From: a phage
Reading direction: 5' to 3' (one strand)
NCBI GenBank assembly: GCA_025823825.1
Contig: GCA_025823825.1_4720.1
DNA length: 64,000 nt
Made by a program: the position numbers and the translations under genes. Below the pieces are notes generated by a model. It worked only from the letters and a program-made list of their open reading frames with translations, searched no databases and was not told the DNA's origin. Of this stretch, positions 14-62,871 are shown piece after piece; position 1 is the stretch's first letter; each line of letters starts with the position of its first letter.

Positions 14-50
14 CCTTCCTTCCCCGGCCTTGACGGCTAGGGAAGGAAGG
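14..50. repeat. copy of the CCTTCC…GGAAGG hairpin element (terminator-like)
   Basis: CCTTCCTTCC-ccggccttgacggctag-GGAAGGAAGG; core ccttccccggccttgacggctagggaagg identical to 49892-49920. Confidence 0.6.
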
Positions 51-62
51 TTTATGGTTTAT

Positions 63-602
63 TTACTGTGTGTTCTTAGCTTCACGAATGAAAATAACAT
101 CAGGATATTCTTGGGATTCAATGAATTCAGGATTACGATAACGACGAATATGACGCATCGTTGTACAAGCAAGTTTGTAAAGATGTTCCTCCTCACGTTG
201 TGTTAATAACATCAGTTGCGCGTCTGGAATCACGAATGGGAGTCTTTCATTCACGTATTCCCGAAGGTCGTCGAGATCATCGTGATGAATGCCCTCTGAG
301 AGCTTATATAACGCTTCCAGCAATTCTAATCCACCGAACTGGTAACTTCCTATTGTCGTCTTAAACAATGCGCCAGAACGCGTGGCGGATGCTCTATCGG
401 CGACATCGTATTGTTCTAACATATATCCGTAGACCATGCTACGTCGATCCAGCGTATCCGTAACGAGATTACGCCACCGTTCCAATCTTTCGAGCGCCTT
501 GTCGATAGAGTAAACGATCATGCCATGTTCATCCAACTCTTCCGCAATACCCAATAGTTCATTGTTGTTAGGTTTTGCTGCACCGATAAGAAAAACACTC
601 AT
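63..602 (-). CDS. hypothetical protein (179 aa)
   Basis: Long ORF in a tightly packed minus-strand gene array; stop/start coupled with the next ORF at 602. No recognisable motif. Confidence 0.5.
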   Translation of the reverse strand: MSVFLIGAAKPNNNELLGIAEELDEHGMIVYSIDKALERLERWRNLVTDTLDRRSMVYGYMLEQYDVADRASATRSGALFKTTIGSYQFGGLELLEALYKLSEGIHHDDLDDLREYVNERLPFVIPDAQLMLLTQREEEHLYKLACTTMRHIRRYRNPEFIESQEYPDVIFIREAKNTQ

Positions 603-1015
603 TACTCAAACTCCTTATTCCAAAACTCGATTAATGAATCGAGCTGTTCCTTACTGGTTATCTCACCTCCCCTAACAAAATGAAATCGTTCTTGAATGGC
701 GATCTTTTCAAGGATATCGGTAAGCAAATGACGGTGACAGAAATTTCCTGCAGGACAATAACACCCTAACACCACAACCGGATGGGAGAATAAAGCCAAC
801 CATTCCGGCGTATGATCAACAAAGCTTTTGCGCATAAGCGTGTAATAGCCTGCGGTATATTCATCCTCGGTTAACGTTTTTGATTTGATTCCTGTAACAA
901 GTTCCCATGAAGGTGCGAAGAGTGGGTTACCTGTTTTCACCGTCGTGTCCAGTAGAAACGCTCGTGTGTCTGAAAGCCAACGATATTTGGCTAATTGAAG
1001 GGTGTATAAAAACAC
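602..1015 (-). CDS. hypothetical protein (137 aa)
   Basis: ORF in the same co-directional array; no recognisable motif. Confidence 0.45.
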   Translation of the reverse strand: MFLYTLQLAKYRWLSDTRAFLLDTTVKTGNPLFAPSWELVTGIKSKTLTEDEYTAGYYTLMRKSFVDHTPEWLALFSHPVVVLGCYCPAGNFCHRHLLTDILEKIAIQERFHFVRGGEITSKEQLDSLIEFWNKEFE

Positions 1016-1118
1016 AGCGCTAACCCCAAAGGATAAAAATAAAACCTTGACATAACCACCACCGCAACCCCATACAGGGCTACGGTGGGGTCATACAGAG
1101 AGACGTGTTAAGTTACAA

Positions 1119-1598
1119 TCAGTCTTTCAGCAGCTCAGCTGCATACGCACTGATGTTGTCGCGAATATGCTTAACCTGAGTTGTTGGGAAAGATTTCTTA
1201 TACGCGGTGGTCAGGCGTCCGTAAACCTGTTTCTTCTCGTTAGAGCCGAAACCAACTTCAGCGCTACGTTGAACCGTTGCGGACACAACGTCTTTGCCTA
1301 GCGGCAGGGTTACAGAAACAACGTCAACCTGCTTGTTATCCGCCATGAACTGCGCGCCAACGCGACCTACCGCCAGACCATGAGCCAGACCGATATCGGT
1401 GGTCAGTTTCTGTGCTTTTTCCAGGATTTCTTTTTCTTCCGGCGTTACCAGAGTACCCAGGAAATCACTGCCTAACTTCTGGCTACCAGATTCGTCCAGT
1501 TTAATACCAGCGGCGATTTTATCAGAAAGAGCCTGAACTTCCGGACGTACGTTAGAAGTGGTTTCAGTCGCTACGGTGGTTTCTACAGCTTCAGACAT
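1119..1598 (-). CDS. hypothetical protein (159 aa), probably highly expressed
   Basis: Strongly biased codon use (ctg, cgt, ggt, gaa); promoter-like motif CTATATTAC upstream at 1722-1730 on the minus strand. Confidence 0.6.
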   Translation of the reverse strand: MSEAVETTVATETTSNVRPEVQALSDKIAAGIKLDESGSQKLGSDFLGTLVTPEEKEILEKAQKLTTDIGLAHGLAVGRVGAQFMADNKQVDVVSVTLPLGKDVVSATVQRSAEVGFGSNEKKQVYGRLTTAYKKSFPTTQVKHIRDNISAYAAELLKD

Positions 1599-1733
1599 GT
1601 TAATACTCCAATTAGTTTTTTCGATCGATCAAAAGGATAAAATCAGAAGATTCTTTCTTCATAGGGAAAACACAAGTCGGTTAAGGTTTACTTCTTAAAC
1701 TCCTTGCGTTCTATCAGTTAGGTAATATAGACC

Positions 1734-2534: not shown

Positions 2535-2816
2535 CTTTTAAATTCCTACTTAACAATAAAGTTCATATACGGCGTATGTATCCGTAGAATAATGGGTTCT
2601 GGTAAGATCTTACATTAAAATGACGGCATAAAAAGTACCCCCTTACCCACATGGGTAAGGAGGTTCGTCCATCACGACGAAAGGACGTTATGTGACGCGG
2701 TGTCCATAACGGCCCTGGTAGCAGGCATTAAAGATAACAAAAAGGATGTAAGTTGAGCTAAACCACCTAAATACGGTAACGATTACTTCCGTACACAATA
2801 TAACGCAACATCTTTT

Positions 2817-3626: not shown

Positions 3627-3704
3627 AACCCCTTTATAAGCAACTGAATGAAAAAAGCGTTACATTCCCGCTTTTACGTCAGAAGGTGACGCGTAAGCGT
3701 TATA

Positions 3705-4436: not shown

Positions 4437-4437
4437 A

Positions 4438-6672: not shown

Positions 6673-6905
6673 TACTGCGCTCCCTCCAACGCATTACTAC
6701 CTACGGGTTCTTTGGTTTCCAGACGGCTGTTTAAGCGCGCAGCAACCGCATCTTCCAATCCCAACGGCATAACCTTTTTGTTCACGTCAGGATCGGCGGC
6801 ATCATTACCAACGGTTTGCCGTACGACCTCAGCAACCAACGTTACCGCGTTCGTCAGCGCAACAAAGCTCGCTGCCCGAGCCGTGTTAAGTTGTTCTTGG
6901 TTCAT
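6672..6905 (-). CDS. small hypothetical protein (77 aa)
   Basis: Short ORF start/stop-coupled to the 507-aa ORF; weak support. Confidence 0.35.
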   Translation of the reverse strand: MNQEQLNTARAASFVALTNAVTLVAEVVRQTVGNDAADPDVNKKVMPLGLEDAVAARLNSRLETKEPVGSNALEGAQ

Positions 6906-6981
6906 TCACTTTTCCTTTTTAATGTCAGAGCATCGCATTCTTGACGTACGTCAAGAAGGTACTGCGTTCAGCGAAATAAAC

Positions 6982-7007
6982 GAGCAGGGGCATGAAGCCC
7001 CCTGCTC
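6982..7007 (-). terminator. intrinsic terminator-like hairpin after the beta-like gene
   Basis: GAGCAGGGGGC-atgaa-GCCCCCTGCTC stem-loop directly 3' of the stop at 7008, followed on the minus strand by a T-rich stretch (tcgtttatttcg). Confidence 0.6.
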
Positions 7008-8135: not shown

Positions 8136-8481
8136 CAATCTCTTGGGCGAATTTAGTTCTTATTCAACATAATCATACTATTACCAGAATAAGACTGAGA
8201 TTAGATTGTTCAGATAAGGTCGTTAATCTTATCCCGGAGGCGACGATAGGCACATCACCTCCCGCTTACGTTCTCACGCAAGAGCAGACTATATCACATC
8301 TCGTCTTAGGCTTGTTTTCACAAGTCAAACGGTGCTTCTTCAGCACCTCAACGAGAGTTCACTTCTTCCCAGCGCATCCAGCGCCATTCTCTTATCCAAG
8401 GAGAATGCCTCACTCGAGGGGTACCGGGGGATGAATCCCTTAGTCGTTGAACCGTCACCCTAGAACGTTTCACAACGATCC

Positions 8482-9693
8482 TTAGGCGATTGGCTGCGGA
8501 TTACCCTTAGCCTGCGGACCACGAACTTTTAACGTGGTCAACTCTTCATTTTTAAAGCCCGCATCACGAGTTAATCGTCTCGCTTCTTGCACGTCTAACG
8601 TTTCCGTTTCCGCTTTGGCTGAAGGCAGCATTGGGCGTCCCCGCAATTCAATGAATCTCGTCCATACGTCACCGTATAAACGGACCCGCTCTTTGTAAAC
8701 AGAATAGTAAATATATCGCTTTCCATCAGGGAATTTCTTCATTCCTTCCGACTTCAAACGGTAATCTAACAATGTAGGACTGATCCCCATTTCTTTTGCG
8801 CATTCTACACCGGAGAGATACAACTTCGGTACGTCGTCTTCAGGAATAACCACAACGGCACGTTTGTTGTTTGTTTTCTCCAGTTCGATAATGCTATCAT
8901 CCACTTCACGCCATGGTGTTTGATCGGTTGCCCATTTCGCTTGGAGGAAACCATTAACGACCGGCTGATCTGGATCGTTAACATATTCCGATGCGGTGGG
9001 AAGCTTAACACCGATATGGTTGGCGAAATCCGTTAACGAATTAAAAATCTGGATTTCTTTCGTTAACGTGGATCTGGTAATAACACCTTTACTGGAGTCT
9101 TCAGATAGCGTAGCAATCTCGTATTCCGTCGGGATGTACCATGGGTCATCGCCGCGATATTTACGGTATTGCAACCTTTCGGTAAACGGACGTTCTTCAC
9201 CACGGTAAACACGATGATGAATGAAATCAATATTCACACCAAGTTTACGTGCTGCTTCCGTCATAGACGCATAATCCGTAACTTCTCCGGTATCGATATT
9301 GCGAACCTGAATGGGTTTGCCGTAAGCTTCGATGGCTTTTCGACGCATGGTCATGATGCGTGCGTGTTCGTTGTTCTCTTTTGCCGTCACCCATTCGAGA
9401 TTATCATTCTCCGTGTTACCGTCTGGATCAAGGTAATTATTAAGTTTATTACCGTCCTTATGGTTCACGTGGAGTTCGTATGCATCATCGATGTTACGAT
9501 ATGTCAACATCAATAAACGATGCATCGAACGATATGTGACAGTACCGTCGTGGCTACGAAACGCGTATCGCCAATACCCACCCATTATAACTGGCTTATA
9601 AATAAAACCAGTTTCTTTGTTACGCAATGTCCCATCAATGGCAATTTCAAGAAACGGGAATTCCTCTACTGTTTTGTACGTCAATTTTCTCAT
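8482..9693 (-). CDS. intron-encoded HNH homing endonuclease (403 aa)
   Basis: HNH_3-type motif HVNHKDGNKLNN…NLEWVTAKENNEHA; NUMOD-like DNA-binding motif TDYASMTEAARKLGVN; lies wholly inside the intron with its own promoter-like motif at 9739-9747. Confidence 0.8.
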   Translation of the reverse strand: MRKLTYKTVEEFPFLEIAIDGTLRNKETGFIYKPVIMGGYWRYAFRSHDGTVTYRSMHRLLMLTYRNIDDAYELHVNHKDGNKLNNYLDPDGNTENDNLEWVTAKENNEHARIMTMRRKAIEAYGKPIQVRNIDTGEVTDYASMTEAARKLGVNIDFIHHRVYRGEERPFTERLQYRKYRGDDPWYIPTEYEIATLSEDSSKGVITRSTLTKEIQIFNSLTDFANHIGVKLPTASEYVNDPDQPVVNGFLQAKWATDQTPWREVDDSIIELEKTNNKRAVVVIPEDDVPKLYLSGVECAKEMGISPTLLDYRLKSEGMKKFPDGKRYIYYSVYKERVRLYGDVWTRFIELRGRPMLPSAKAETETLDVQEARRLTRDAGFKNEELTTLKVRGPQAKGNPQPIA

Positions 9694-13165: not shown

Positions 13166-15220
13166 CCTTGTCTTCGCCTCAGTTCGCTACGCTGAGACCG
13201 CCTGCATGGATACGTACATCACAGGCTGCTTGCACTTTCATGCAAGAGGAGACTATATCAAACCGTCAGCTTCACCTTCTCGATCGTATCGAGAATGCGG
13301 CGCTGAAGAATACTTCAGCAGCACCTGTTACGGTAACCTACACTTCGAAGACGCTTGTCCTCTACAGGGTGGTAAATCCCTTAGTCGTTGAACCTGCGTT
13401 GTTTCACATTTTTGCAAACAAGAATGCCGTATTGCTACGCAACAACCAGGCTGCTGATTGCCCATTGTTTCGCACCTTAGCACCGCTTACGCGGCTTTTC
13501 TTTCAGCCTAAGCCTCTTACGGAGGTAGTGCATCTCAACTTTTGTTTCTGCCTTTCGGCACCTCATGGGTCGTTGAGCTTTAGGGGTTCCCAGCAATTCG
13601 TAGGTTTTTCAAGCACTCCCTTTCGGGAATACCGGACCTTTACCCTTTAGCTAATTTATTTAAGTATCTGAAATCCCACTTATCTTTACGTCGTTTATCG
13701 CACTTAATGTCAGGATGATTAACACGATGTCTGATGGTCGTCGCTGACAGCTGACTGAGATTCTCAGCAGATCGTGCGCCAAGAACAACGAGTTTTGTGT
13801 CGTCTGGACGCGTAACTTCTACTGCCCGATAATGCTTACGTAACACATCACGCCAATATTCACGACGTTCTGGTTCAGCATACTCAAGCATGTAACCGTT
13901 AACATCTACTAAACCGTAGCTTTCGTTTAATCGAGAGGTAGCGGCTGGTTTACTAATACCGATTGCTTTAGCCGCATCGACCACGGTTTTATACGGGGTC
14001 TCATTACCGTCTCTATCTACAACCATAATGAAATCTGGACGTGAATCGAGTAGCTGCTGTCTGCGTTCGACGGCTTGTTGATGAAGTACCATGTTAACGT
14101 GTTCGAACCCGTAACCTTCTGGGCCACGCCATCCTGGATTGTTGTTCGCTCGATAAAGTATCGTCGATGATTTCACTCCAGTCTGACGCGATGCCTCGTT
14201 TGCGCTATGAACAACCGTGGTAGAGCCGTCAGGATGATATATCCGTATCTGGTTCATTATACCGGAACCAATGAAGTTACCGTCGGCTGATTTAATGTCC
14301 GGCCATGGTTGCGGGTCATCTTTGAATTTAACCACCCAGCGGTTGTTAAACAGCTTAACTTTTCGAACATGTTTGCCTAATGTCGTATCCGTAACACCTG
14401 CGATCACTGATGCTTGTGTGATGCTCAGGTACTCAGTAACGGTATCGTTCCAAGTATCCCAAAGCAGAACCGGTTTATTGTCGTCGCGTAAACCATGTTC
14501 GATAGCATGTAGGACATTACGACTTCTGGTCGCCCATTCCAGGTTATCGAGAGAATAGTTCCACTTATCAGCATCAAGATGATTAACGTCCAGACTATCG
14601 ACATTTGCTGGATATTCCCGCCACGCCAACATCAAGCAACGGTGTAATCCCTTATTACCAGCCTTCTGGCGACAATCATGTTTCAAGCAGACAGTAACGT
14701 AACGGTTCGTTTCGAAACGTGGATGATAGATACTCCCGTCCTTTCTGTCTCTGATTTCACCTGCTTCGTTTATTACGTATCTCGTCATTCCTGGAATAAC
14801 ACGATAACCGGGGTACTTAGCGATCTCATAAGCAGGCTCGAAACGATAGGACAAATTATCAACATCCCAATTAGATTCGTTACCGTCAACAAACATCGCT
14901 TTGACGTACTTCTGTGTTTCAATATCAACCAGGATGTTTTTGTGTGCGATACAAATCAATGCTGGGATATTGAATTCGCGACCGACTAAATTAACTGTGT
15001 CGCCGTTTCTCGGTATCTCGACGTGGGTATCGCGATACCGTAAGTTTCCATAGCCGTCTATTTCAATCCAGCTCAGAAACGGAATAGATATAAATTCTTT
15101 TTCAGATACACGCCATTTAAACATATAAACCTCTGTATAACCTTACTATCACACTAAGAGGTTTATCTGTAAATTCTTACAAAACGGCGTAAATTACTAA
15201 AAAGGTCGATCACCGCCTAA
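13166..15220 (-). mobile_element. group I intron (about 2.05 kb) inside the beta'-like RNAP gene, carrying an HNH homing endonuclease ORF
   Basis: On the minus strand: Q-like AATCAGCAGC (about 13456-13465), R-like GUUCAACGACUAAGGGAUU (about 13377-13396), S-like GAUAUAGUCUCC (about 13250-13261), then the 3' splice site after a G. 5' exon ends in U (…gcc ggt). Spliced junction gives …YLAG|FDGD…, rebuilding a YNADFDGD-like catalytic motif. Confidence 0.75.
13640..15124 (-). CDS. intron-encoded HNH homing endonuclease (494 aa)
   Basis: HNH_3-type motif VNHLDADKWNYSLDNLEWATRSRNVLHA; NUMOD-like motif SITQASVIAGVTDTTLGKHV; own ribosome-binding site (agagg) before ATG at 15124. Confidence 0.8.
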   Translation of the reverse strand: MFKWRVSEKEFISIPFLSWIEIDGYGNLRYRDTHVEIPRNGDTVNLVGREFNIPALICIAHKNILVDIETQKYVKAMFVDGNESNWDVDNLSYRFEPAYEIAKYPGYRVIPGMTRYVINEAGEIRDRKDGSIYHPRFETNRYVTVCLKHDCRQKAGNKGLHRCLMLAWREYPANVDSLDVNHLDADKWNYSLDNLEWATRSRNVLHAIEHGLRDDNKPVLLWDTWNDTVTEYLSITQASVIAGVTDTTLGKHVRKVKLFNNRWVVKFKDDPQPWPDIKSADGNFIGSGIMNQIRIYHPDGSTTVVHSANEASRQTGVKSSTILYRANNNPGWRGPEGYGFEHVNMVLHQQAVERRQQLLDSRPDFIMVVDRDGNETPYKTVVDAAKAIGISKPAATSRLNESYGLVDVNGYMLEYAEPERREYWRDVLRKHYRAVEVTRPDDTKLVVLGARSAENLSQLSATTIRHRVNHPDIKCDKRRKDKWDFRYLNKLAKG

Positions 15221-16717: not shown

Positions 16718-16827
16718 CTGAACACACGAGAGACGTAATGGGTGATGGCGTCACCCATCGCTTCCTTGCTTGAGGCGAGGAAGTTATTAGGTTACGTACC
16801 TGCCTGATTTTATCAGGTGGGCGATGT

Positions 16828-23596: not shown

Positions 23597-23617
23597 AGGG
23601 CGGGAGATTCCCGCCCT
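23597..23617 (+). terminator. terminator-like hairpin after the giant gene
   Basis: AGGGCGGGA-gatt-CCCGCCCT stem-loop 10 nt after the stop, followed by cttcttg. Confidence 0.55.
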
Positions 23618-25777: not shown

Positions 25778-25794
25778 TATTCACCGCATAAACC

Positions 25795-25826
25795 CCCTCT
25801 CCCTTCCCTGATGGGTTGGGAGAGGG
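25795..25826. terminator. bidirectional terminator-like hairpin between convergent genes
   Basis: CCCTCTCCC-ttccctgatgggtt-GGGAGAGGG between the stop of 23636..25777 (+) and the stop of 25833..26951 (-). Confidence 0.55.
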
Positions 25827-25832
25827 ATTATG

Positions 25833-26951
25833 TTAACCTAACGACACCGTCGGTAAATCAGGATAAAGTTTCTTCAAGCCTGCCATCGTGGTGGTAGTTG
25901 TATAATTCTTACCCATCGCAGCAAGAGATGCGTATTTCCTACTGCGGGAGAAAAGAGAATAGAACCCACTGGATGTTTCCATCCACATCGTGAGGAGTTC
26001 TGCATCGTTACCGTGATAGTTCGTTTTACCCCATCCAGGTTTAAACGCATCGGCAAAATCAATTAAACGCGAGGCTTCAGCGTCGTATTCTTTAAGGGTA
26101 ATGTACGATGGAATGCGGTAGTTACGAAACAGTAACGTAATGAGTTCGGGGACAACGCTACGGGCACGTTCGGCAGTAATGAGTTCGGTGATCACAGCAG
26201 CTGTACGGAAATCGCCGTTAAGACCAACGCTGCTTAACGATTCCGCTAAAGTGGTCGCCATCGCCACTTTATCCTCCGCCGACCCAGAGTCATACAGACT
26301 ACGTACATCGATGTAGTTGCCTGCTAATGCGGCTTGACGAATCAACGATGTGACAACCGTCCGGTTCGTCTTATAGTCGTTGTAACTGAATTCGGTTCGC
26401 GTTTTCCCTTGATAGTCGAGATACCGATCAACAATCGTCGACAGTTTATAATACTCATCGCCCGACATCAGACTATCGAGAAGCTTAACGTTTCCATCTT
26501 TATCAATAAGCTTCCCTAACGCACCATTGGATTGCTGGTTAATGGTACTGTAAATCTGGTCTTTTACTTGCGATAAGATGTTATCGGTTGACGATATATT
26601 CAGGCCAGTAACATCTTTGATCTTATTCATCAATGCGTTTTCATTCAGGGAGATTTTGCCTCCGCTGATATCGATGAAAGAGTTAAGATCGCTTATGGAA
26701 ATCAAGTTTCCCGTTAACGCCGATAATGTACTATTGATACTGTTCGTAATACTGCTACGAAAACTGGTTAACGCATCCGCCGCTGAAACAGCGGTACCGC
26801 TAACCGCTTTAAGGAGCGTATCTCGCCCTGTCGAAAAATCGCTGGTGATGGTTTTGATCTTGGACGTATCTATACTCGGCAGTTTGTCGTAAAGACTCAT
26901 CACGTCCTCCTGAAAAAGAAAAAAGAAATACGGCATAAAGCCTACCCACAC
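25833..26951 (-). CDS. hypothetical protein (372 aa)
   Basis: Long ORF; Ser/Thr/Asn-rich; no motif recognised. Confidence 0.55.
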   Translation of the reverse strand: MWVGFMPYFFFLFQEDVMSLYDKLPSIDTSKIKTITSDFSTGRDTLLKAVSGTAVSAADALTSFRSSITNSINSTLSALTGNLISISDLNSFIDISGGKISLNENALMNKIKDVTGLNISSTDNILSQVKDQIYSTINQQSNGALGKLIDKDGNVKLLDSLMSGDEYYKLSTIVDRYLDYQGKTRTEFSYNDYKTNRTVVTSLIRQAALAGNYIDVRSLYDSGSAEDKVAMATTLAESLSSVGLNGDFRTAAVITELITAERARSVVPELITLLFRNYRIPSYITLKEYDAEASRLIDFADAFKPGWGKTNYHGNDAELLTMWMETSSGFYSLFSRSRKYASLAAMGKNYTTTTTMAGLKKLYPDLPTVSLG

Positions 26952-26982
26952 AATGGTGGGTAGGCTAAGATCAACATCGATG

Positions 26983-34011: not shown

Positions 34012-34062
34012 CATAATAACCCACCCTACTACCCCGTTAAGGGCGGTAGGGTGGGATAAGGT

Positions 34063-36680: not shown

Positions 36681-38021
36681 ATGATTAGTATTTTTGGTTT
36701 TTATACGTACAAAGGGTACGCTAATAACCACCCAAAAACCACGGCGAAATTCGGTGAGTTCAGTCAGCACAGTGCTACGTTCAGTCGCGAGATCGGCATC
36801 TATACCAACACGGCGTACGCACGTACGACCTTATTAGTGTTGAATGCAGAAAACGAAGCTGGTGAGGCACAAACGCTGGATGACGACACCGCAGGCCGCA
36901 TTCTTCAGGTTGGTCAATGGTTGCTGGAAAAAGCCTCATCGGGCGAAATCCAGGAAGACCGAGACCAAGTTATCAGCTACCTAAAAGACGACTTCACAAC
37001 GTATCTGGATTCTATCGACATCCCAACACCCACCACCGATGGGAAAGTCTATCTACCGGCGTGGATCAGTTTCAAGATAACAGCCACCGGCGATGTTGTC
37101 AAGATTTGGTTGTCTGATAGCGTATTCCAAAGTCAATATCCAAAATACGAATATGAAGTCGTTCCTCCTGTTCCTAAGGATCAGTTAGATACCTTCTTCG
37201 AAGATCTGGCAACATTGAAGAAACTGGTTGACAGTCGAAGCAGCGAGAAACTGACCGAAGAAATCAACGAGGTGCGCGACCAATTCCCAGACACACAATT
37301 GTGGACGAAAACCTATAAAGCGTACGATTACACCGACGATTCGAAATACATTAATACCGATTGGACGGTGATTATCTACGGTGCAGCAGGTAACAACATT
37401 GATAATATCAAGGAGTTCCTGCAAAACTGGATTCTTAGCAATAGCACGCACGGACGTCCAGACTGGGAAATCGTTCTGCCGGATCTTTTTATTCCGACAG
37501 AACACATCTTCATCCCAATCTGGAACCGCCACAGTGCGCCAGAGATGACCAATCAGGCACGTATCTATAGCCCTATCTTCGATGATTCGTTGATGGATAC
37601 CTACCTGAAAAACTTTGCTGATGGTTACGGCGAAACCGCCGAAGTCCGTAAAACGCTTCAAGCGGTGCCGACGTTGTGGCGTTCGATCGGTTTCTTAAGC
37701 GTTGGTAACTCACGTAACCGTGACGGTAAACTTAAGTTCTACGATCGTTGGCCGCAATACGCGCTCATCAGCACAACCAGCATCGACATTAACCGTATCG
37801 ACGATGCGACACGTGAATTCATCACGTTCACTTACGAAATGCTGAAACTGGCAGAATCGCTCACCGAAGACGACCCGGTACCGTTGGGTTATAGTCGTGT
37901 TACGCGCGGTAGCAATAGCTTCTTAGCGAAAAGCCACAACGATGTTCAGTATCTCTTCTTAACAAAAGAAGCGTTCCTGAAGAAAATGCCGGATGAAGCC
38001 GACACGCCTGTTGGAGGTTGA
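36681..38021 (+). CDS. hypothetical protein (about 446 aa)
   Basis: Start corrected to ATG at 36681 (MISIFGFY…) with ribosome-binding site gaggacg; the annotated start at 36645 overlaps the divergent gene. Confidence 0.55.
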   Translation: MISIFGFYTYKGYANNHPKTTAKFGEFSQHSATFSREIGIYTNTAYARTTLLVLNAENEAGEAQTLDDDTAGRILQVGQWLLEKASSGEIQEDRDQVISYLKDDFTTYLDSIDIPTPTTDGKVYLPAWISFKITATGDVVKIWLSDSVFQSQYPKYEYEVVPPVPKDQLDTFFEDLATLKKLVDSRSSEKLTEEINEVRDQFPDTQLWTKTYKAYDYTDDSKYINTDWTVIIYGAAGNNIDNIKEFLQNWILSNSTHGRPDWEIVLPDLFIPTEHIFIPIWNRHSAPEMTNQARIYSPIFDDSLMDTYLKNFADGYGETAEVRKTLQAVPTLWRSIGFLSVGNSRNRDGKLKFYDRWPQYALISTTSIDINRIDDATREFITFTYEMLKLAESLTEDDPVPLGYSRVTRGSNSFLAKSHNDVQYLFLTKEAFLKKMPDEADTPVGG

Positions 38022-38650
38022 TTATGGCTGTAACACGCATGACGCCAAGTCCCGGTGCGGTCGGGGTATTCACAGTATCAGCGCCGTTCTCCGTTGGTGC
38101 GTCAACGCTATATACTGTTACAGCGTTGCGAAGATTCAGCGAAGTCATCGGTAGTGGAATCGATCTATTTACGGAACTGTACGAACCGTTATCAATAGAC
38201 AAATCCACTTTCGAAGCGCATCTCGAAGCGAATGCTTATCTCGTCACGTTGCAACCGGATTACGGTGCACCCGTACTGGTACCTGATACGTATATCACGT
38301 CGTACCCAAAGAACGATTCCTTGCGGTATCGTCGCATTATTCTGGGTATCGATTTCGGGCCTCTTCCTCCCGGTCTTGACCTTTCGTATTTAACAACGAT
38401 ATTGAAAGGTAAGGCTAGTGATATTCTTGGTGTCGAACCTGAAGTTAAAACGATGGAAATCACTCTCGATGATACCGTTACTCAGGAACAGCATCAGATA
38501 AACGAAGCCCGTCGTCAGGCTGCGATAAAAGAGCGAGATACCATTTACGCACGCTGTGAAACGCAAGAGAAGCAGATAACGGCTTTACTTGCAACCCAAA
38601 AGCAACTTATCAAATTGCTTCAAGACGCCGGTATCAATCCGACACCTTAA
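38018..38650 (+). CDS. hypothetical protein (210 aa)
   Basis: ORF 4-nt coupled to the upstream gene; followed by hairpin 38658-38688. Confidence 0.5.
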   Translation: MIMAVTRMTPSPGAVGVFTVSAPFSVGASTLYTVTALRRFSEVIGSGIDLFTELYEPLSIDKSTFEAHLEANAYLVTLQPDYGAPVLVPDTYITSYPKNDSLRYRRIILGIDFGPLPPGLDLSYLTTILKGKASDILGVEPEVKTMEITLDDTVTQEQHQINEARRQAAIKERDTIYARCETQEKQITALLATQKQLIKLLQDAGINPTP

Positions 38651-38657
38651 CATATTC

Positions 38658-38688
38658 CCTCCTCCTTCCCTGACGGGTTGGAGGAGGG
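38658..38688. terminator. terminator-like hairpin of the CCTCC/GGAGG family
   Basis: CCCTCCTCC-ttccctgacgggtt-GGAGGAGGG; same family as the hairpins at 25795, 42811, 54461 and 56286. Confidence 0.5.
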
Positions 38689-38700
38689 TTATGCCGTCAA

Positions 38701-38755
38701 GCAAAAAAAAAAAAAAATGATAGTCACAGGCCCTCCAATGAAGGAGAGCCGTGAC
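38701..38755 (-). terminator. intrinsic terminator for the minus-strand gene ending at 38763 (hairpin plus U15 tract)
   Basis: On the minus strand, an imperfect hairpin (plus 38722-38755) is followed by a 15-nt T run (plus A15 at 38701-38715). Confidence 0.55.
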
Positions 38756-38762
38756 CGTCAGT

Positions 38763-39482
38763 TTAGGATGCGGATAATCTAGCGTACTTCTGTCGAATAT
38801 AGTTCTTACGGCGAACTTCGTCATCCTCGTCACGCCATTCGAGATAAGCAACGAAACGGCGTAACTGTGCCGCAGTCATCGTTGACGATCGGTCTTTTAC
38901 ATCTAGAACGACGTAACGAACGTCATCAACGCCGTCGCAACCAACATAACGGAATACCAAAAGACCGTTATCGTATTCAATGATGATAACTTCGAATCGT
39001 TTCTCGAACAAATAAAACAGTTCTGATTCAATGATCATCGGAACTACGCATTTATCATCATGATCGATGATTTTCATCATCACCCGTAACGCGCGAGGAG
39101 TATGACGAGCGAACTGACCGTCGAAACGTTGTTTCATCGTTTGTTCCACGTCGTCTGTTTTTGTTCCAGGCCAAGGACGCACTACAGATTTCGGTGGTGT
39201 AAGACGGCAGCGGTACGCTTGTATAAACAACAGAATATCAGCAACATTAGGAAATTCATCCTGGTCTTTGTATAGCTTACGGATAATATCCGGGATCGTA
39301 GTCAACAAATATTTCTTATCGCCTCCCACTTTCTCGAGATTAGCGATATGTCCTTCTACCACAGGCTGGTAAACAAAATTATACCAGTGGTGGTATTTTG
39401 CAACGTGTTGGTATTTCGGGATGAGATTAAGAACAGTATTTACTGCGCGTTTTAATGGGTTCATCAGAAGAATCCTTCTCAT
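38763..39482 (-). CDS. hypothetical protein (239 aa)
   Basis: ORF with terminator downstream. Confidence 0.5.
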   Translation of the reverse strand: MRRILLMNPLKRAVNTVLNLIPKYQHVAKYHHWYNFVYQPVVEGHIANLEKVGGDKKYLLTTIPDIIRKLYKDQDEFPNVADILLFIQAYRCRLTPPKSVVRPWPGTKTDDVEQTMKQRFDGQFARHTPRALRVMMKIIDHDDKCVVPMIIESELFYLFEKRFEVIIIEYDNGLLVFRYVGCDGVDDVRYVVLDVKDRSSTMTAAQLRRFVAYLEWRDEDDEVRRKNYIRQKYARLSAS

Positions 39483-40437: not shown

Positions 40438-40532
40438 CTCCTACTCACACGTATCTTGAAGATTAGTTAAAATCAACAAAAGAAAAAACGATATAAAGCA
40501 AGGTCCTCTGATATCAGAGGACCTTGGATCAA

Positions 40533-41189: not shown

Positions 41190-41220
41190 GAATGAAATCT
41201 CGCTGGCTTACTTCACCTAA

Positions 41221-41229
41221 GTAATATAG
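41221..41229 (-). promoter_or_regulatory. promoter-like motif CTATATTAC (minus strand)
   Basis: Shares gtaatatagccgtgaaa with the site at 53755. Confidence 0.5.
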
Positions 41230-41321
41230 CCGTGAAAAATGTTGGATTAAGTTAAATACTGCAACCGTAACTGATTTTATGGGCTTTTAGCCTAAACCAA
41301 TCATCTTCGGAATCATCATCT

Positions 41322-42161: not shown

Positions 42162-42495
42162 TCGTCGAGCCTGTCCTTCGGGGCAGGCTTTTATGCTGTT
42201 AAATATCAGGAATAAGAATTAACAAAATAGGAAAATGGTGTGTATATAACACAAAGGAGGGAGATGATTATGTTACTCATTCTAATGGAGAGAGCATTGC
42301 TGGCGGGTATCTGCGCATTCTCTGTTAAACACGCTGTTGCTATCATGGCTGAAGAAAGGCGTAATACGCATAATGTATTACGCTGAAAACACTGTGTGCA
42401 TTAGTGTATGACGAGAAATCGTCGAGGCCCCCGTCTTCACGAGGGCCAACACCTATGCATGATTATCCATCGTCTGTTAAACAAAGGTTATAAAT

Positions 42496-42804
42496 ATGAG
42501 CAATTTGAACGTTGAATTTACTTCAACAACGCCTGTCATGAATGGTGTTGGCACTGAAACCAAAATCGTATTAGAACCCATTCCAGGGTTACGTGATCTC
42601 GGTGATTTTTATCAACTGATGCCGCGTATACGGAAGGCCTTAAACAGCATCGATCTTGATTCCAATAAAGATTTCCAACACGATACAGAAAATACTGATC
42701 ATGTATTGCTACCATCGGGGATCGCAAAATTCACCTACACGCAAACATTGAAAGCCTCCGATGGTGAAATCCGTCGTTTTATCGTTGAAGTAGAAAGCGC
42801 ATAA
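42496..42804 (+). CDS. hypothetical protein (102 aa)
   Basis: ORF with ribosome-binding site (aaggttataaatatg); hairpin 42811-42835 downstream. Confidence 0.45.
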   Translation: MSNLNVEFTSTTPVMNGVGTETKIVLEPIPGLRDLGDFYQLMPRIRKALNSIDLDSNKDFQHDTENTDHVLLPSGIAKFTYTQTLKASDGEIRRFIVEVESA

Positions 42805-42857
42805 AAACCATCCTCCCAACCCGTAAGGGAAGGGAGGATGAAATATGCCGTTAAACG

Positions 42858-48776: not shown

Positions 48777-49865
48777 ATGAGCGATCTGGCAACAGACAAT
48801 CGCACAAAAGGGAGTCAGCTAGCTCCAGACAACAACGTAAGCGTTTTCCGTATCTTTGCCTTGGGTACTGTTGCTGCCGACTTTTCCAATAAAAGTCTGG
48901 AGGAAGATCCTAACCAAACGCTGGAGGTCTTTCTTGATGAGATGATGTCGGGCGCTGATGGGAAAGTTGAAGCGGCGGGAAGCGTTAAAGAAGTCAGTGC
49001 AACAGACGCTCAAGGGAACAGCTATACGGCGAAAGCGGCAACAACAACCAGCGTACAGTGTTACTGGTTACCCTTCGGCAGTAACCGGATGACAGCACCT
49101 AACTTGAGGAAAGGTCAGCGTGTGGTGGTCTGGCGTACCGCCGATGAAGAACAACTCTACTGGCAGCCCAAAGGAGGGGATAGCGAGCTGATGACCATGG
49201 AATCGGTTATCCTCACCGTCAGCGCACGTCCTAGCGCTAAGAAGGACCGTAAATCGATTTCAACGGAAGACTGCTATTACCTAATGGTTGATACCTTCCT
49301 CAAGAAAGCGGTTATCGGTACCAGCGCACAGCTTGGTGAAGTTACCCAAGTTTACATGGAACTTAATCTGGACGAGGGTTACCTACAGGTTGCGGACAGC
49401 GTCCATCAAAATCTGCTGTTACTCCATTTCGTTGAACATATGCTGCGTTATCAAAACCAGGACGACAGCATCATCGACGTGACAAAAAAGAACATCACAT
49501 TCCAGTGCGAGGATACGCTCAAAGCAATTGCTAAGAACGATATCCGAATGAAAGCAAAAAATATTTATACGGAATGTGAGAACTTCGAGCGTACCAGCAA
49601 AACAGAAAGCGTTACGAGTCAGAATGTTTCTTTGAAGTGTGATCGTTACACCGCGCAAGTATCAGGACAGACCACGTTTAAATGTCCGAATACGGTATTC
49701 ACTGGAGCTGTAAGCTTCACAGGTGAAGACGGAAACACGATGACGTTGAATGGGAACTTCATACACGTCGCAGGCTCTTGGCGTTCACCAACCGGAACAA
49801 ACGTATACACCCACGATCACGGTGGTGTAGATCGTGGCAGCGGTCGTACAGACCCATTCCAATAA
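48777..49865 (+). CDS. hypothetical protein (362 aa)
   Basis: ORF with ribosome-binding site (aggagattacagcatg); followed by A11 tract and hairpin. Confidence 0.55.
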   Translation: MSDLATDNRTKGSQLAPDNNVSVFRIFALGTVAADFSNKSLEEDPNQTLEVFLDEMMSGADGKVEAAGSVKEVSATDAQGNSYTAKAATTTSVQCYWLPFGSNRMTAPNLRKGQRVVVWRTADEEQLYWQPKGGDSELMTMESVILTVSARPSAKKDRKSISTEDCYYLMVDTFLKKAVIGTSAQLGEVTQVYMELNLDEGYLQVADSVHQNLLLLHFVEHMLRYQNQDDSIIDVTKKNITFQCEDTLKAIAKNDIRMKAKNIYTECENFERTSKTESVTSQNVSLKCDRYTAQVSGQTTFKCPNTVFTGAVSFTGEDGNTMTLNGNFIHVAGSWRSPTGTNVYTHDHGGVDRGSGRTDPFQ

Positions 49866-49888
49866 AAAAAAAAAGAAATGCTATACAA

Positions 49889-49923
49889 CCTCCTTCCCCG
49901 GCCTTGACGGCTAGGGAAGGAGG
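49889..49923. terminator. bidirectional terminator-like hairpin; 29-nt core identical to the hairpin at 14-50
   Basis: CCTCCTTCC-ccggccttgacggctag-GGAAGGAGG between convergent genes; T-rich on the plus side (tttatttatt) and A11 on the other side (U-run for the minus strand). Confidence 0.6.
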
Positions 49924-53664: not shown

Positions 53665-53754
53665 TTAAAAGATCCTCTGTTTTTCACGTTAATTAAACAA
53701 CGTATTGATTTCTATTCGATAGCAATACGAACATCGTACGTATGCATCATGAAG

Positions 53755-53763
53755 GTAATATAG
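53755..53763 (-). promoter_or_regulatory. promoter-like motif CTATATTAC (minus strand)
   Basis: Extended conservation with sites at 28099 and 41221 (TTTCACGGCTATATTACCTTCATGATG on the minus strand). Confidence 0.5.
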
Positions 53764-54507
53764 CCGTGAAAGGATTTGTGTTACAGAAGGGTTTTGTTGT
53801 TTTTAAGAAGGGATGGATTTAGAAGAGGTGTTTCAAGGAAGGTAAACGAGGATAGGTATTTTGATTTAAGTAAGTAAGATGTTATCTGTATTTGTTAAAA
53901 GTGTATTGTTTATCTTAGGTTATGTCTTATTGTTTAATCGTTTAATATTTTTATCTACGTAGGTTTAACTCTATCTTGTTTGTATATTTAAATTAATTTA
54001 AAAGTAAGTCAATAAGCGTATCTTCAAAACAATGGATAACATGTGTTTACTACCTTAACGGTAACACATGTCATCTGTGCATTACACTCCGTTACATGCT
54101 GGTTAAATCGGATAACTCAAAAAAACATTTGTGATACTCTTCTTCACGTTGTTCATCAGAGTATCTCGTCTATACTCATTGCATTCGTATACGACATAAC
54201 CGTTATACGCTAACGCTACGCTTATAGCTTGATAACTCTAAGGATAAAAACATAAACTCGCTTCGCTCGTTTAGTTTTTCTTTTTCTTAGAGTTATCCTG
54301 TTGCTCGTCTCTAAAGGACTTCGCTCCTCCCCCGTCCCCCGAAGGGGCCGAGGTCGTGGAAATTTTACTTTCCAAATACATTTACAACATCTGTAAACTT
54401 TTACTCCAGGTACTTAATCTTATCATTAGAAATTATAAAAGAGAAGAATAAACATAAACATAAACCTTCCTCCAACCCAGCAGGGAAGGAGGAAGGGAGA
54501 GATTAAA

Positions 54508-55401
54508 TTATTCGGAAACGTTATAGCCGAATACTGCTTTACCGTAGGTGTGGGTACCGTCAGCTAACGACACCACTAACACATTGCTGTACGTAGCGTT
54601 AACACCATTGTCGGTAGAACTGGTGGTAGCACCGTTATAGACAAAGGTAGCTGTTTGCAGATTGGTTTTCAGTTCATTGATGATATCATCACTTACGCCG
54701 GTCTGCTCTTTGATCAGGGTGGTCAGGTTACCTGCTAAGCTTGCATCGATCTTGGTGTCGTTACTGGTAATAGCTTGTAAACCTGCAGTGTAGGTGCTGA
54801 AGTCTAACGGATAGGTTAACAGACGCGCTGAGGTCTTGGTACCATCGCCTTCATCAACGTAGGTTAAGTTACCCAGGTTGGTAACCTCGATGATGTTAGC
54901 CAGATCCAGCGTGGTGTTATAAACTTTAACTTGAACAGAGCCATACCACGCCAACGAATCTTCTTTGGCTTCCAGGGTGATCGTCTGGATACCAGACTGA
55001 TCGAAGGTAACCGGAGTAGCTAACGTTTCGGCTTTGATGTCTTTCGCTTTATCCAGGAACTTCTCACCGGAAGGCGTGATCATACCGTAGCGTTGAGCTA
55101 CAAGGTCAACCACATCACCGATGGTGGTGTTCGCCTCAACGTTAACACGTACGGCGATCTTCTGGAACCACTTAGCCAGATCCAGACGATGGTAGGTAAC
55201 ATCGCGGTTATTGAAGTAAGGGGTACCTTCACCAGGACTAAGTGTTAAAGTTGCTTCTGGAGCAGAAGGATTCTTTTCTTTAAGGACGTATTTAAGGTCG
55301 GTATATTTAAAGCTGGCACCAGTGTCAGCGTTAAGCTGGTTGATCTCATCAACGATAAGTTGCCAAGGTGTTTTTAAAGTAAGCGATACTTGAGCAGTCA
55401 T
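54508..55401 (-). CDS. probable abundant structural protein (about 297 aa)
   Basis: Start corrected to ATG at 55401 (MTAQVSLTLK…) with ribosome-binding site aggaag; the annotated N-terminal 91 codons overlap the divergent gene and are rejected. Strong codon bias; Thr/Asn/Ser-rich. Confidence 0.55.
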   Translation of the reverse strand: MTAQVSLTLKTPWQLIVDEINQLNADTGASFKYTDLKYVLKEKNPSAPEATLTLSPGEGTPYFNNRDVTYHRLDLAKWFQKIAVRVNVEANTTIGDVVDLVAQRYGMITPSGEKFLDKAKDIKAETLATPVTFDQSGIQTITLEAKEDSLAWYGSVQVKVYNTTLDLANIIEVTNLGNLTYVDEGDGTKTSARLLTYPLDFSTYTAGLQAITSNDTKIDASLAGNLTTLIKEQTGVSDDIINELKTNLQTATFVYNGATTSSTDNGVNATYSNVLVVSLADGTHTYGKAVFGYNVSE

Positions 55402-55540
55402 TTTCTTCCTCGATAGTTGGTACATCACTCTCAAAAGATGTAAGTGTTTACAGAAATTAATATATTTTATATTAAATGTGAATATTATGGAGAACGACTC
55501 CGAATCTCCTTTTCGACCATCAAAATCAGAGGACACGAAC

Positions 55541-56086
55541 ATGTCTACTTTAGACTTTAACAAAGCAGCGAAATCCCTTCTGCTTGATCTTATTAACACC
55601 AAAGCGACCCGCACATTGGCTGAAGAAGAACTGCAGTTCGGTACTCCGCAGGAATCTTCCGAACATGAAAAGAACACCGTTATTCAGCTGGACGCGGCGG
55701 CTGAAGCAGCTAACCTGCAGGGTACTCAGCAGTTCTACTACGATCGTCTGGCTCTGTCTGACGTTTTCGCTGATGTAACTGGTGATGTTACTTTCGAACT
55801 GCCGCACGGTACTGACAGCATTCAGGCTTCTGAGCTGGTAAGCAAGCTGGTCACCAAATTCGGTCTGGCTTCCCTGAATGGTGAAATCAGAGAAGAAACC
55901 TTCCAGCTGTCTGCCGGTACTGTTGGTGAGGTAATTCTGAATGCGATCGAGGGTGGCCTGGTATACACTGGTACTCTGCGAGTTGCCCTGACCTACGCAC
56001 TGGCACCAAAAGACGAACTGGCAACCGTTCTGGCGAATAACGTAGCTGAAGGTTTCGAGAAACCGACCGTTAGCGTTGTTGGCTAA
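55541..56086 (+). CDS. probable abundant acidic protein (about 181 aa)
   Basis: Start corrected to the ATG of MSTLDFNK (about 55541) with ribosome-binding site gagga; very strong codon bias (ctg, ggt, cgt, gaa); divergent from 54508..55401 across an AT-rich promoter region. Confidence 0.55.
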   Translation: MSTLDFNKAAKSLLLDLINTKATRTLAEEELQFGTPQESSEHEKNTVIQLDAAAEAANLQGTQQFYYDRLALSDVFADVTGDVTFELPHGTDSIQASELVSKLVTKFGLASLNGEIREETFQLSAGTVGEVILNAIEGGLVYTGTLRVALTYALAPKDELATVLANNVAEGFEKPTVSVVG

Positions 56087-56380
56087 TAAGCACATAGAGC
56101 AATAGTATGGGTTTTGTACAGCTCGGCTATTGATCTTCTACAATTTGGTTGTAACAATCTGCGTGGTTGCACGCTTATCTTTCTCATTGAACGCTTCGTA
56201 TGAAGCGTGGTGTTGAAAGGGTTGTGGATCTCCTCAAGCGGCCAGGGACCCAGACCAACCTGAATAAACACAAACACATGTTAAGCCCCTCCTCATCCGT
56301 TATTGGGTGGGGAGGGGTCTTATACGTCTTTATGCGTTCCGTTCGTTCTGGATCGTTTTAGGACGGTTTATGATGGTGTT

Positions 56381-57016: not shown

Positions 57017-57142
57017 TAGAACTCCTCGTTGGAATAACGATTTAGAGGAATAGGAAGGGTCTAGAACGCGATAAACGATTTAATCCAGGCAAACCCCAGG
57101 TTAAACTTTTCTAAGCGTTAGAACGCGTTCTAGAGCGCAATA

Positions 57143-59191: not shown

Positions 59192-59204
59192 AACCTGGAG
59201 GTCC

Positions 59205-61802: not shown

Positions 61803-61814
61803 TATTCACCTCGA

Positions 61815-62300
61815 TTAAATAGGCGAGTCGGGTAGCTGACCATCATCGATCTCGATGGTGGCCACCTTACGTGTTGCAGCAAGATGTGATGTACCCTGGA
61901 TTTTGTTCCAGGTGCCGATACGCATGGCGTTTTTGTAGCTGCTATCGCTATCGTTCAGCGTGTAAACAAAACCGCTATCGGTTACGGCAAGATAGATCCA
62001 GCCTACAGACTCACTGATGCCTGACACGTCCAAAGTTGCTGCTGGCACCGTCCCTACCACCGTGTTGTATTCCGCTGTACCTTGACCAATGCTGATCCGT
62101 CCGTTGCTGTAACTGGCTGCTGGAAGCGTTTTATTTCGACTGAAGAAAAGAAACGGAAGGTAACGCTGGGTAACAAGCGGTGCAAGTTTAGGAGCCACTT
62201 CGGTCTTAACGTAGACATCTGTTTGTGCTGGCGTTACCTCGTGAGGGTTCTTTTGGGTAAGATACGTCCCCCATTCAGAAAGCAGTGTTGATAGCTTCAT
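61815..62300 (-). CDS. tail fibre-associated protein (161 aa)
   Basis: N-terminal motif LSEWGTYLTQKNPHEVTPAQTDV shared with neighbouring fibre genes. Confidence 0.5.
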   Translation of the reverse strand: MKLSTLLSEWGTYLTQKNPHEVTPAQTDVYVKTEVAPKLAPLVTQRYLPFLFFSRNKTLPAASYSNGRISIGQGTAEYNTVVGTVPAATLDVSGISESVGWIYLAVTDSGFVYTLNDSDSSYKNAMRIGTWNKIQGTSHLAATRKVATIEIDDGQLPDSPI

Positions 62301-62304
62301 GCGG

Positions 62305-62820
62305 TTACCCCATGTAACGTTTTTGGCCGAGGATGAAGACTTTGTTAAATACCACCGAAGTGATTCCTGTTGCGTTACAGCTCACCTGCCCGACGCGAAT
62401 TGCTGTTGACGTATCGACCCCAGCACTACTCTGCCAGATCCAATCGATCGATCCGTCTTTCTGACGAATGAAAAGATAACCGGTTTTGTTCGCCCAGTCG
62501 GAAGTAAGTTTTTTGATGTCTAGCGTTCCCTTCGCCAGAATATAGTCGGTACCGGCGATCATGACGGGTATTTCAGGATACGAGATTACCGTACCGCTGG
62601 CAGTAACGTTGCTGATGCGTTCGCTACGAATATCGGTACAGTCACCGAAATACGCTACGGGGAGTATCCCCTTAAGGAGCTTTTTGCCGATTCTCGTATC
62701 GATCGTGTTTTTATCGGGTGCGTCGATTTGCGCTGCGGTGACTTGGTTAGGGTTATCCTTCCTTGCGTACCATGTCGTCATGCGAGCACCCAATTCACTC
62801 ATTTTTGTGCCCATTTTCAC
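62305..62820 (-). CDS. tail fibre-associated protein (171 aa)
   Basis: N-terminal motif MSELGARMTTWYARKDNPNQVTAAQIDA shared with neighbouring fibre genes; hairpin 62848-62868 upstream. Confidence 0.5.
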   Translation of the reverse strand: MKMGTKMSELGARMTTWYARKDNPNQVTAAQIDAPDKNTIDTRIGKKLLKGILPVAYFGDCTDIRSERISNVTASGTVISYPEIPVMIAGTDYILAKGTLDIKKLTSDWANKTGYLFIRQKDGSIDWIWQSSAGVDTSTAIRVGQVSCNATGITSVVFNKVFILGQKRYMG

Positions 62821-62871
62821 ATCCTATCGAAAAATAAAAAGAAGGAAAGGTGGGTAGAACCCACCCATCCG

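Follow-up and report, generated by a model that had tools for sequence, protein, structure and literature searches.

A stretch of phage DNA of 64,000 nt (NCBI GenBank assembly GCA_025823825.1, contig GCA_025823825.1_4720.1), referred to below as the window, carries a family of GC-rich hairpins at the boundaries of its genes. These hairpins are probably (with a probability of roughly 0.85) intrinsic terminators of a Goslar-like chimallivirus, belonging by analogy to the same class of signal as the terminator motif described for phages phiKZ and 201phi2-1. An earlier reading of the window, made from its letters without database searches (the sequence-only reading), had proposed a conserved family of factor-independent, often bidirectional, terminators. 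This proposal gained support from the position of the hairpins, their greater stability in the sense strand, covariation within their stems, their resemblance to the mapped phiKZ motif and the labels in the GenBank record of Escherichia phage vB_EcoM_Goslar. From this we infer that the hairpins terminate transcription in this phage, with the phage polymerases rather than the host enzyme responding to them. The finding is largely a known one, with a two-tier elaboration of the hairpin added to a known type of signal.

Relationship of the window to phage Goslar

Over its full length, a 4-kb probe from the window showed 93.9% identity to the genome of Goslar (MK327938, 237 kb, genus Goslarvirus), a jumbo phage that forms a nucleus and possesses its own RNA polymerases. 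Two Goslar-like contigs from IMG/VR (U45988 and U11560) were found to be 91-96% identical to the window. As no relative was identical to it, the window represents a fourth member of the Goslar clade, the four genomes of which share 92-97% identity with one another. Position 48777 of the window corresponds to position 10070 of Goslar, with the window crossing the arbitrary ends of the Goslar record. This record contains several genes for RNA polymerase beta or beta-prime-like subunits, one of them lying within the region homologous to the window, as expected of a genome with phiKZ-like virion and non-virion multisubunit RNA polymerases. A Pfam search of the window did not detect the divergent RNA polymerase subunit copy.

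The Goslar genome was assembled whole, and 73 intergenic hairpins with a folding energy of -16 kcal/mol or lower entered the genome-wide statistics. For the comparison of orthologs, 19 hairpins of the window were located in Goslar and the two IMG/VR relatives by BLAST anchoring.

Folding and placement of the hairpins

All 15 sites listed by the sequence-only reading fold as stem-loops. Four of its coordinate pairs were, however, clipped or offset and are corrected here to 26939-26966 (previously 26941-26970), 34020-34055 (34027-34059), 42809-42840 (42811-42835) and 54465-54496 (54461-54490), and four further hairpins had been overlooked, namely 1055-1091, 38721-38757, 42426-42447 and 16760-16784, the last of which lies in a divergent region. 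The 18 hairpins retained with corrected bounds have folding energies of -12 to -28 kcal/mol and z-scores of -2.8 to -6.7 relative to 200 dinucleotide shuffles per site, and at 16 of these 18 sites not a single shuffle equalled the native fold. A sliding scan of minimum free energy over both strands gave 99-134 windows of 44 nt at or below -20 kcal/mol, compared with 17-33 in dinucleotide-shuffled sequence, making such very stable windows four to five times commoner than in the shuffles. No match to the hairpins was returned by an Rfam scan of the window, in which only group I introns scored.

The hairpins were found to be concentrated between genes. Although non-coding sequence makes up only 8% of the window, it holds 12 of the 14 distinct hairpins whose folding energy is -24 kcal/mol or lower. 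It had been claimed that most hairpins lie between convergent or tandem gene ends, and this was borne out, with all seven gapped convergent junctions of the window carrying a hairpin with pyrimidine/purine (Y/R) arms (14-50, 25795, 34020, 38657 together with 38721, 42809, 49889 and 56286). At the first of these junctions, the + strand homologue of Goslar_00218 ends approximately 28 nt before the hairpin, just outside the window. Across the whole of Goslar, approximately 18 of the 20 convergent junctions carry a hairpin by reading of the annotation, and the Goslar hairpins were distributed over 18 convergent, 46 same-strand and 7 divergent junctions, as is expected of elements placed at the 3' ends of genes. 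Six of the 15 originally listed sites are already labelled as putative terminators in the Goslar GenBank record.

In 11 of the 19 hairpins (14, 1055, 2637, 25795, 26939, 34020, 38657, 42809, 49889, 54465 and 56286), the 5' arm is CCYCC-like and the 3' arm GGRGG-like, with the other eight being plain GC hairpins. Ten of the 19 are identical to their Goslar orthologs, in genomes that differ by approximately 6%, and a large share of the differences in the others consists of inverted tips (see below).

The conserved TTATG box

A conserved box, TTATG(C/T)(C/T)GT, which is absent from the sequence-only reading, was found directly 3' of the stems in forms such as TTATGCCGT and TTATGCTGT (see Table 1), TTTATGCGGT and ATATGCCGT. 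The box is frequently two-sided, the element then reading GCATAA-hairpin-TTATGC. Fifteen examples of TTATKYYGT were detected in the window against 6.2 expected, a number reached in none of 100 shuffles, and at 13 strong flank sites TTAT lies no more than 2 nt from the stem. Among the window flanks in the direction of termination, 21 of 26 contain TTAT or TATG, and in Goslar TATG was present in 40 of 82 such flanks (7.8 expected, p ~1e-19). A sequence at positions 1-13 (- strand) resembling a Shine-Dalgarno sequence with an ATG was considered as a gene start and rejected, being the TATGC box of a convergent-junction element.

The same box is known from phage phiKZ. Mapping of its transcript 3' ends by ONT-cappable-seq showed that 61 predicted intrinsic terminator regions share the motif BCCYCCCCHWWDGGGRRGGBYTTATKYYGT, described as a stem-loop followed by TTAT, with six bidirectional terminator regions being located between convergent genes (Putzeys et al., 2024; PMC10914365). 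The same motif has been reported for 201phi2-1 (n=59), together with 15 bidirectional sites and companion motifs which elongate the stem (PMC11512511). The consensus of the aligned Goslar flanks, TTAT-K-Y-Y-g-T, agrees with the phiKZ motif at each position.

The comparison with phiKZ was made by IUPAC motif searches and flank statistics, a covariance model of the phiKZ terminators having been dropped when alignment with MAFFT gave mixed registers of these short hairpins. As a positive control, the phiKZ motif was searched for in the first 50 kb of phiKZ, where five sites were detected against none expected. A scan of 100 kb of phiKZ for hairpins followed by TTAT gave dozens of elements of the form GCCCTCCC-loop-GGGAGGGC-TTATG, some of them with GCATAA...TTATG symmetry. 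When as many as three mismatches are allowed, the 3' half of the motif occurs 13 times in the window against 8.6 expected, which is not significant alone. The full 30-nt motif is unable to match the two-tier copies described below because their loops are longer.

The TATG core is shared with the late promoter of phiKZ, in which transcription starts at the G of TATG. It could therefore be suggested that the box is a late promoter of the non-virion RNA polymerase and that hairpin and box form a terminator-promoter cassette for the next gene. The core is needed for late promoter activity in vitro (PMC4666361), and the boxes at the same-strand sites 2637, 26939 and 42168 lie 30-100 nt before the next start codon. 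However, TATG is not sufficient alone in phiKZ (PMC4666361), and the distribution of the box in Goslar is the opposite of what a promoter would require. It was found on 22 of 36 flanks at convergent junctions, on 18 of 46 sense and 16 of 46 antisense flanks at same-strand junctions and on only 2 of 14 flanks at divergent junctions, against a background of 9.5%, and is symmetric on the antisense side as well. The box being commonest where a promoter would be pointless, it is favoured as a part of the termination signal, and a promoter cassette is considered unlikely. A dual terminator and promoter role is conceivable at same-strand junctions.

A number of points weigh against termination at the hairpins. 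The enrichment of the box on the antisense side of same-strand junctions (16 of 46) falls where there is no obvious need for termination. A canonical T-run, defined as at least five T in 8 nt starting 0-2 nt from the hairpin, was present on 12 of the 26 window flanks and on approximately one third of the Goslar flanks, and a built-in scan for Rho-independent terminators flagged two of the four hairpins in the first 20 kb. In the literature, neither 3'-end mapping nor a termination assay was found for Goslar and its relatives, the Goslar RNA-seq being presented without an analysis of transcript ends. In addition, true termination and exonuclease trimming back to a stable hairpin are not fully separable at the mapped phiKZ 3' ends (PMC10914365). 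With a T-run at only one third to one half of the sites, the hairpins are better described as terminators of the phiKZ type than as textbook ones, and termination is therefore argued here by analogy with phiKZ.

This last ambiguity would allow the hairpins to be mainly stabilisers or processing stops of the 3' end, an exonuclease trimming back to them from a downstream end without the polymerase being released. Their high stability (-20 to -28 kcal/mol) would suit such a role, as would the many hairpins lacking a U-run and the inability of 3'-end sequencing in phiKZ to tell trimming from termination. The conserved box 3' of the stem, on the other hand, would serve no evident purpose if the stem did no more than block an exonuclease, and the strict placement at convergent junctions suits a polymerase stop. 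Moreover, elements of the same class in 201phi2-1 terminate transcription in vivo in two-reporter constructs, where, of the eight terminators assayed, four were stronger than the positive-control terminator and two were as strong (PMC11512511). Stabilisation as the main function is accordingly regarded as rather improbable.

Repeats and the two-tier hairpin

An exact repeat of 29 nt had been noted in two of the hairpins and proposed as a conserved element. It was recovered at 18-46 and 49892-49920, the identical run in fact extending to 31 nt (17-47 and 49891-49921), with weaker similarity continuing into the 3' flank. By our own estimate, approximately 1e-8 exact repeats of this length would be expected by chance in 64 kb. 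Gene duplication was rejected as the origin of the repeat, as the proteins encoded on either side of the two copies are unrelated and not paralogs. The repeated unit is therefore the hairpin element itself. The 29-nt family has three copies in Goslar and is characterised by a Y/R stem of 10-11 bp, a 1x1 internal loop and an inner stem of GGCC/GGCT. A search with the 29-mer gave matches, besides the window, only in Goslar and the two Goslar-like IMG/VR contigs.

A second form has the structure Y9-TT-CCC-N4-GGG-TT-R9. It is present in four copies in the window, two reading on the + strand (25795 and 38657) and two on the - strand (42809 and 54465), and in approximately 15 copies in Goslar, ten of which are at convergent junctions. 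When 18 copies were aligned, the inner TTCCC...GGGTT proved invariant and the outer stem variable. Despite this variation, 98.6% of the cells in the alignment were paired, with both sides having changed in 7 of 12 pairs. None of 500 shuffles reached this level of covariation, and it was abolished when the partner was shifted by one to three columns. The possibility that the two-tier element extends beyond the clade was rejected, its apical 16-mer being found only in three Goslar-like genomes, bar isolated single matches. The two-tier form is a clade-specific elaboration.

It should also be noted that TTCCC...GGGTT reads on the - strand in 13 of the 15 two-tier elements of Goslar, the - strand holding most of the genes, and that this bias exists in spite of the frequent flipping of tips between relatives (see below). 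Read in the opposite orientation, the two-tier loop is a GNRA-like tetraloop (GUAA or GUGA).

Inversion of the hairpin tips

At 8 of the 19 hairpins, the apical part was found to be the exact reverse complement of that in relatives, with the stems unchanged, in comparisons among the four genomes. Six of these flips are clean, the apical part differing from the reverse complement at 0-2 positions and from the direct sequence at 3-8. They involve 14-50 and 49889, in each of which the apical 15 nt are inverted (with respect to Goslar and U45988 in the former, and to Goslar and U11560 in the latter), as well as 2637, 23597 and 25795 (all relative to Goslar) and 42809 (relative to one relative, U45988). 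Two others were judged by eye, at 1055 (relative to Goslar) and 38721 (relative to U45988). Both copies of the 29-nt core are flipped in the window with respect to Goslar.

Such a pattern would be expected from template switching, or from recombination between the inverted arms. Inversion of hairpin loops by these events is known in chloroplast DNA and from studies of how RNA hairpins arise, the likeness being the exact reverse-complement apex above an unchanged palindromic stem; the frequency in the clade of the window (8 of 19) is high. To our knowledge, tip flips have not previously been described in phage terminators.

The flips bear on the suggestion of the sequence-only reading that the ccc...ggg loop could be a recognition site for a phage factor. 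The apical module UUCCC-N4-GGGUU (CGGCCUUGACGGCUA in the 29-nt family) might be bound by a phage RNA-binding, antitermination or processing protein, considering that it is invariant across 18 paralogous copies with a variable outer stem, that its TT form favours one strand in Goslar (13 of 15 copies) and that it is not present in phiKZ terminators, and hence would be a clade-specific addition. Yet the module is flipped to its reverse complement at the orthologous sites 14-50, 25795, 42809 and 49889 among relatives that are 92-97% identical, and with such flips between close relatives a strand-specific reading of it is not essential. Enhanced crosslinking and immunoprecipitation (eCLIP) of the nucleus-associated protein ChmC in PhiPA3 placed its binding close to start codons, yielded no sequence motif and was uninformative about hairpins. 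The suggestion is thus not upheld, and a dedicated binding protein is held to be quite improbable.

Evidence for action at the level of RNA

Of the Goslar hairpins at same-strand junctions, 38 folded more stably as the sense strand and 6 as the antisense strand, with a mean difference of 3.1 kcal/mol (Wilcoxon p=4.6e-6). Hairpins of coding regions, used as a control, were almost unbiased (172 vs 149). The same tendency is visible in individual substitutions. In comparison to Goslar, the hairpins 1055-1091 and 2637-2664 contain transitions which give G-U in the sense RNA and C-A on the other strand, a T-to-C change in 2637-2664 retaining pairing solely in the - strand RNA, as G-U. Because the bias in sense-strand stability comes from G-U pairs, it points to the elements acting in RNA and not in DNA.

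This stands against a function in DNA, be it as cruciforms for replication, recombination or packaging or as a mobile repeat resembling repetitive extragenic palindromic (REP) sequences or miniature inverted-repeat transposable elements (MITE). The stems are perfect palindromes in a multi-copy family, and the frequent apical inversions show the inverted repeat taking part in mutational events; the G-U bias, however, has no DNA equivalent, the elements occupy constant, orthologous places in the four genomes and lie at the 3' ends of genes rather than at random intergenic sites, and in phiKZ the motif falls on RNA 3' ends (PMC10914365). A role in DNA is therefore very improbable. Masking of a Shine-Dalgarno sequence in the GGAGG arm by the CCUCC arm, to control downstream translation, is barely credible: the 3' arms do look like the consensus (the + strand at 2637 reads TAAGGAGGT), but it is ruled out by spacing, with the next start codons lying 18-100 nt past the stems and none at convergent junctions, and the ATGs within the boxes open reading frames of just 2-5 codons.

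Proposed mechanism and significance

Read as terminators, the elements would be transcribed by a phage multisubunit RNA polymerase, and the RNA would fold into a very stable hairpin with a pyrimidine-rich CCYCC 5' arm and a purine-rich GGRGG 3' arm. The transcript would then be released over UUAU, within the box UUAUG(C/U)(C/U)GU after the stem, where the rU/rA hybrid is short and weak. Since the reverse complement of a Y/R hairpin is again a Y/R hairpin and the box is often two-sided, a two-way stop is possible, and a single element may halt transcription in both directions, with the strongest copies at all of the gapped convergent junctions. It is a tentative idea, of low probability, that the box, which has the four bases needed by the phiKZ non-virion RNA polymerase at late promoters, is read during elongation by the promoter-recognition element of the polymerase as a sequence-specific pause or release signal, or that the module combines a terminator with a restart site. 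The apical part of the two-tier form might in addition be a clade-specific tag of the mRNA 3' end, for instance for stability or for export from the phage nucleus.

The chimallivirus terminator code, a Y/R hairpin plus a UUAUG box, would hereby be extended from two genera of Pseudomonas phages to a clade of Escherichia coli phages. This suggests a signal tuned to the conserved non-canonical phage RNA polymerases and not to any host. It also provides a simple rule for delimiting the transcription units of Goslar-like phages, for which GenBank marks only a part of the sites, and a source of very strong and compact two-way terminators as engineering parts. Two smaller observations are the sharing of TATG by the terminator box and the late promoter core, and the repeated flipping of hairpin tips between near-identical genomes.

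Features of the window

The elements of the window are listed in Table 1.

Table 1. Putative terminator elements of the window. Coordinates cover the hairpin and, where indicated, its box or flanks; both, not assigned to a single strand; dG, folding energy in kcal/mol; z, z-score; label, annotated as putative terminator in the Goslar record.
Element	Coordinates	Strand	Gene context	Remarks
Two-tier Y/R hairpin, 29/31-nt core copy 1	14-50	both	convergent junction	dG -28.2, z -6.2; + side TTTATGG (51-57), - side TATGC (from GCATA 1-5)
Hairpin	1055-1091	-	tandem - genes	TATG directly 3' on - strand; dG -27.8 on - strand vs -18.0 on + strand (G-U pairs)
Hairpin 2637-2664 with box TTATGCCGT (2631-2623)	2623-2664	-		
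GC hairpin	6982-7007	-	tandem - genes	TTAT within 2 nt on both sides; identical in Goslar and U45988; label
GC hairpin	23597-23617	+	tandem + genes	without TTAT box; z -4.9
Two-tier CCCTCTCCC-TT-CCC-TGAT-GGG-TT-GGGAGAGGG (25795-25826)	25783-25835	both	convergent junction	flanks GCATAAA and ATTATG
Hairpin 26939-26966 with box TTATGCCGT (26938-26930)	26930-26966	-		identical in Goslar
36-nt Y/R hairpin	34020-34055	both	convergent junction	dG -27.6; TTATTATG on - side, GGTTTATTTGCCGT on + side; label
Two-tier hairpin 38657-38688, then directly TTATGCCGT (38689-38697)	38657-38697	+		proposed terminator of + strand gene 38018-38650
Hairpin 38721-38757, then T15 (38717-38703)	38703-38757	-		dG -24.7, z -6.7; canonical-looking terminator for - strand gene 38763-39482
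Perfect 12-bp hairpin	40499-40526	-	tandem - genes	followed by CTTTATATCG and T-run; label
Hairpin 42168-42189 with box TTATGCTGT (42191-42199)	42168-42199	+		label
Weak hairpin	42426-42447	+	tandem + genes	z -2.9; 1 of 200 shuffles as good; family membership uncertain
Two-tier hairpin 42809-42840	42797-42852	both	convergent junction	flanks GCGCATAAAAAC and AAATATGCCGT
29/31-nt core copy 2	49889-49923	both	convergent junction	ATTATAG on + side, T-run on - side; label
Two-tier hairpin 54465-54496, then TTTATGTTTATG	54455-54496	-	downstream of - strand gene 54508-55677	
Y/R hairpin	56286-56317	both	convergent junction	dG -26.4; CTTATACG directly after, TTTATGCG 12 nt further on + side; stem still paired despite multiple substitutions among relatives; label
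Short GC hairpin	62848-62866	-	tandem - genes	followed by T-rich tract with TTTTTATTTTT; z -2.8, weakest

Homopolymer A runs lie beside two of the hairpins, A15 at 38703-38717 and A13 at 49866-49878, both of which are U-runs for the opposite strand. The first of them coincides with the arbitrary ends of the Goslar GenBank record. A pair of hairpins at 16741-16784, identical in Goslar, is located in the divergent region between a - strand RNA polymerase beta-like gene and a + strand gene of 2252 amino acids. By position these are not terminators and could represent a 5' untranslated region or operator structure.

A sequence, TTTCACGGCTATATTACYTWAGGTGA, was detected at 41218-41237 and 53752-53771, read on the - strand in both cases, with nine copies present in Goslar. 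All copies have one orientation and lie upstream of - strand genes. The sequence fits the consensus of the early promoter of phiKZ-like phages, used by the virion RNA polymerase, TTTRARR-TATATTAC-...GTG (PMC7058600, Table 2), and differs from the TTATG box. One of the two copies falls within a region of approximately 840 nt (53665-54507) with no convincing open reading frame (ORF), which is also unannotated in Goslar. This region additionally contains hairpins at 54034-54076 and 54315-54353 and a TTATGTCGT box at 54191-54199, and may encode a non-coding RNA or small genes.

Two group I introns were identified on the - strand. One, at 13229-13721 (Rfam, 60.8 bits), adjoins an ORF with an HNH_3 domain (13640-15124), and an intron is annotated in Goslar at the matching place, between a phiKZ ORF179-like gene and a large upstream gene. 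The second, at 8265-8707 (RF00028, 49.9 bits against a gathering score of 50 bits, E=2.9e-11), carries an ORF (8482-9693, - strand) for a NUMOD1/I-TevI-like homing endonuclease and splits the homologue of Goslar_00228, a gene that is undivided in Goslar with a length of 4347 nt. By comparison of gene spans, the additional 1.3-1.6 kb or so at this locus is absent from Goslar and from IMGVR_UViG_3300045988_173921.

Comparison with known terminators

The closest resemblance is to the terminators of phiKZ, which likewise is a jumbo phage that forms a nucleus and encodes RNA polymerases of its own. The elements of the window share with them the CCYCC/GGRGG polarity of the arms, TTATKYYGT after the stem, an intergenic placement behind genes and, between convergent genes, two-way copies flanked by GCATAA...TTATG. 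They differ in that phiKZ stems are simple, with approximately 7-8 bp and a loop of 4-6 nt, whereas many copies in the window are two-tier, with an internal loop between an outer stem of 9-11 bp and an inner stem of CCC/GGG or GGCC, and have a far higher stability (-23 to -28 kcal/mol). The clade of the window also belongs to another genus with E. coli as host, and its elements are known here from sequence rather than from mapped 3' ends.

With motifs A and B of 201phi2-1 they have in common the same core, stems elongated by what are co-occurring motifs in that phage, bidirectional sites and, on the side of 201phi2-1, termination in reporter assays; the elongating sequence is not the same. The likeness to canonical Rho-independent terminators lies in a GC-rich hairpin at gene ends and, for two-way use, an A-tract upstream and a T-tract downstream, and the classic rule is fitted in the window by 38721-38757 with its T15, by 2637 and by 40499. 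They depart from the canonical form in mostly carrying UUAU in place of a U-run of 6-8 nt, in the conserved G(C/U)(C/U)GU which follows it, and in the strict Y/R polarity of their arms.

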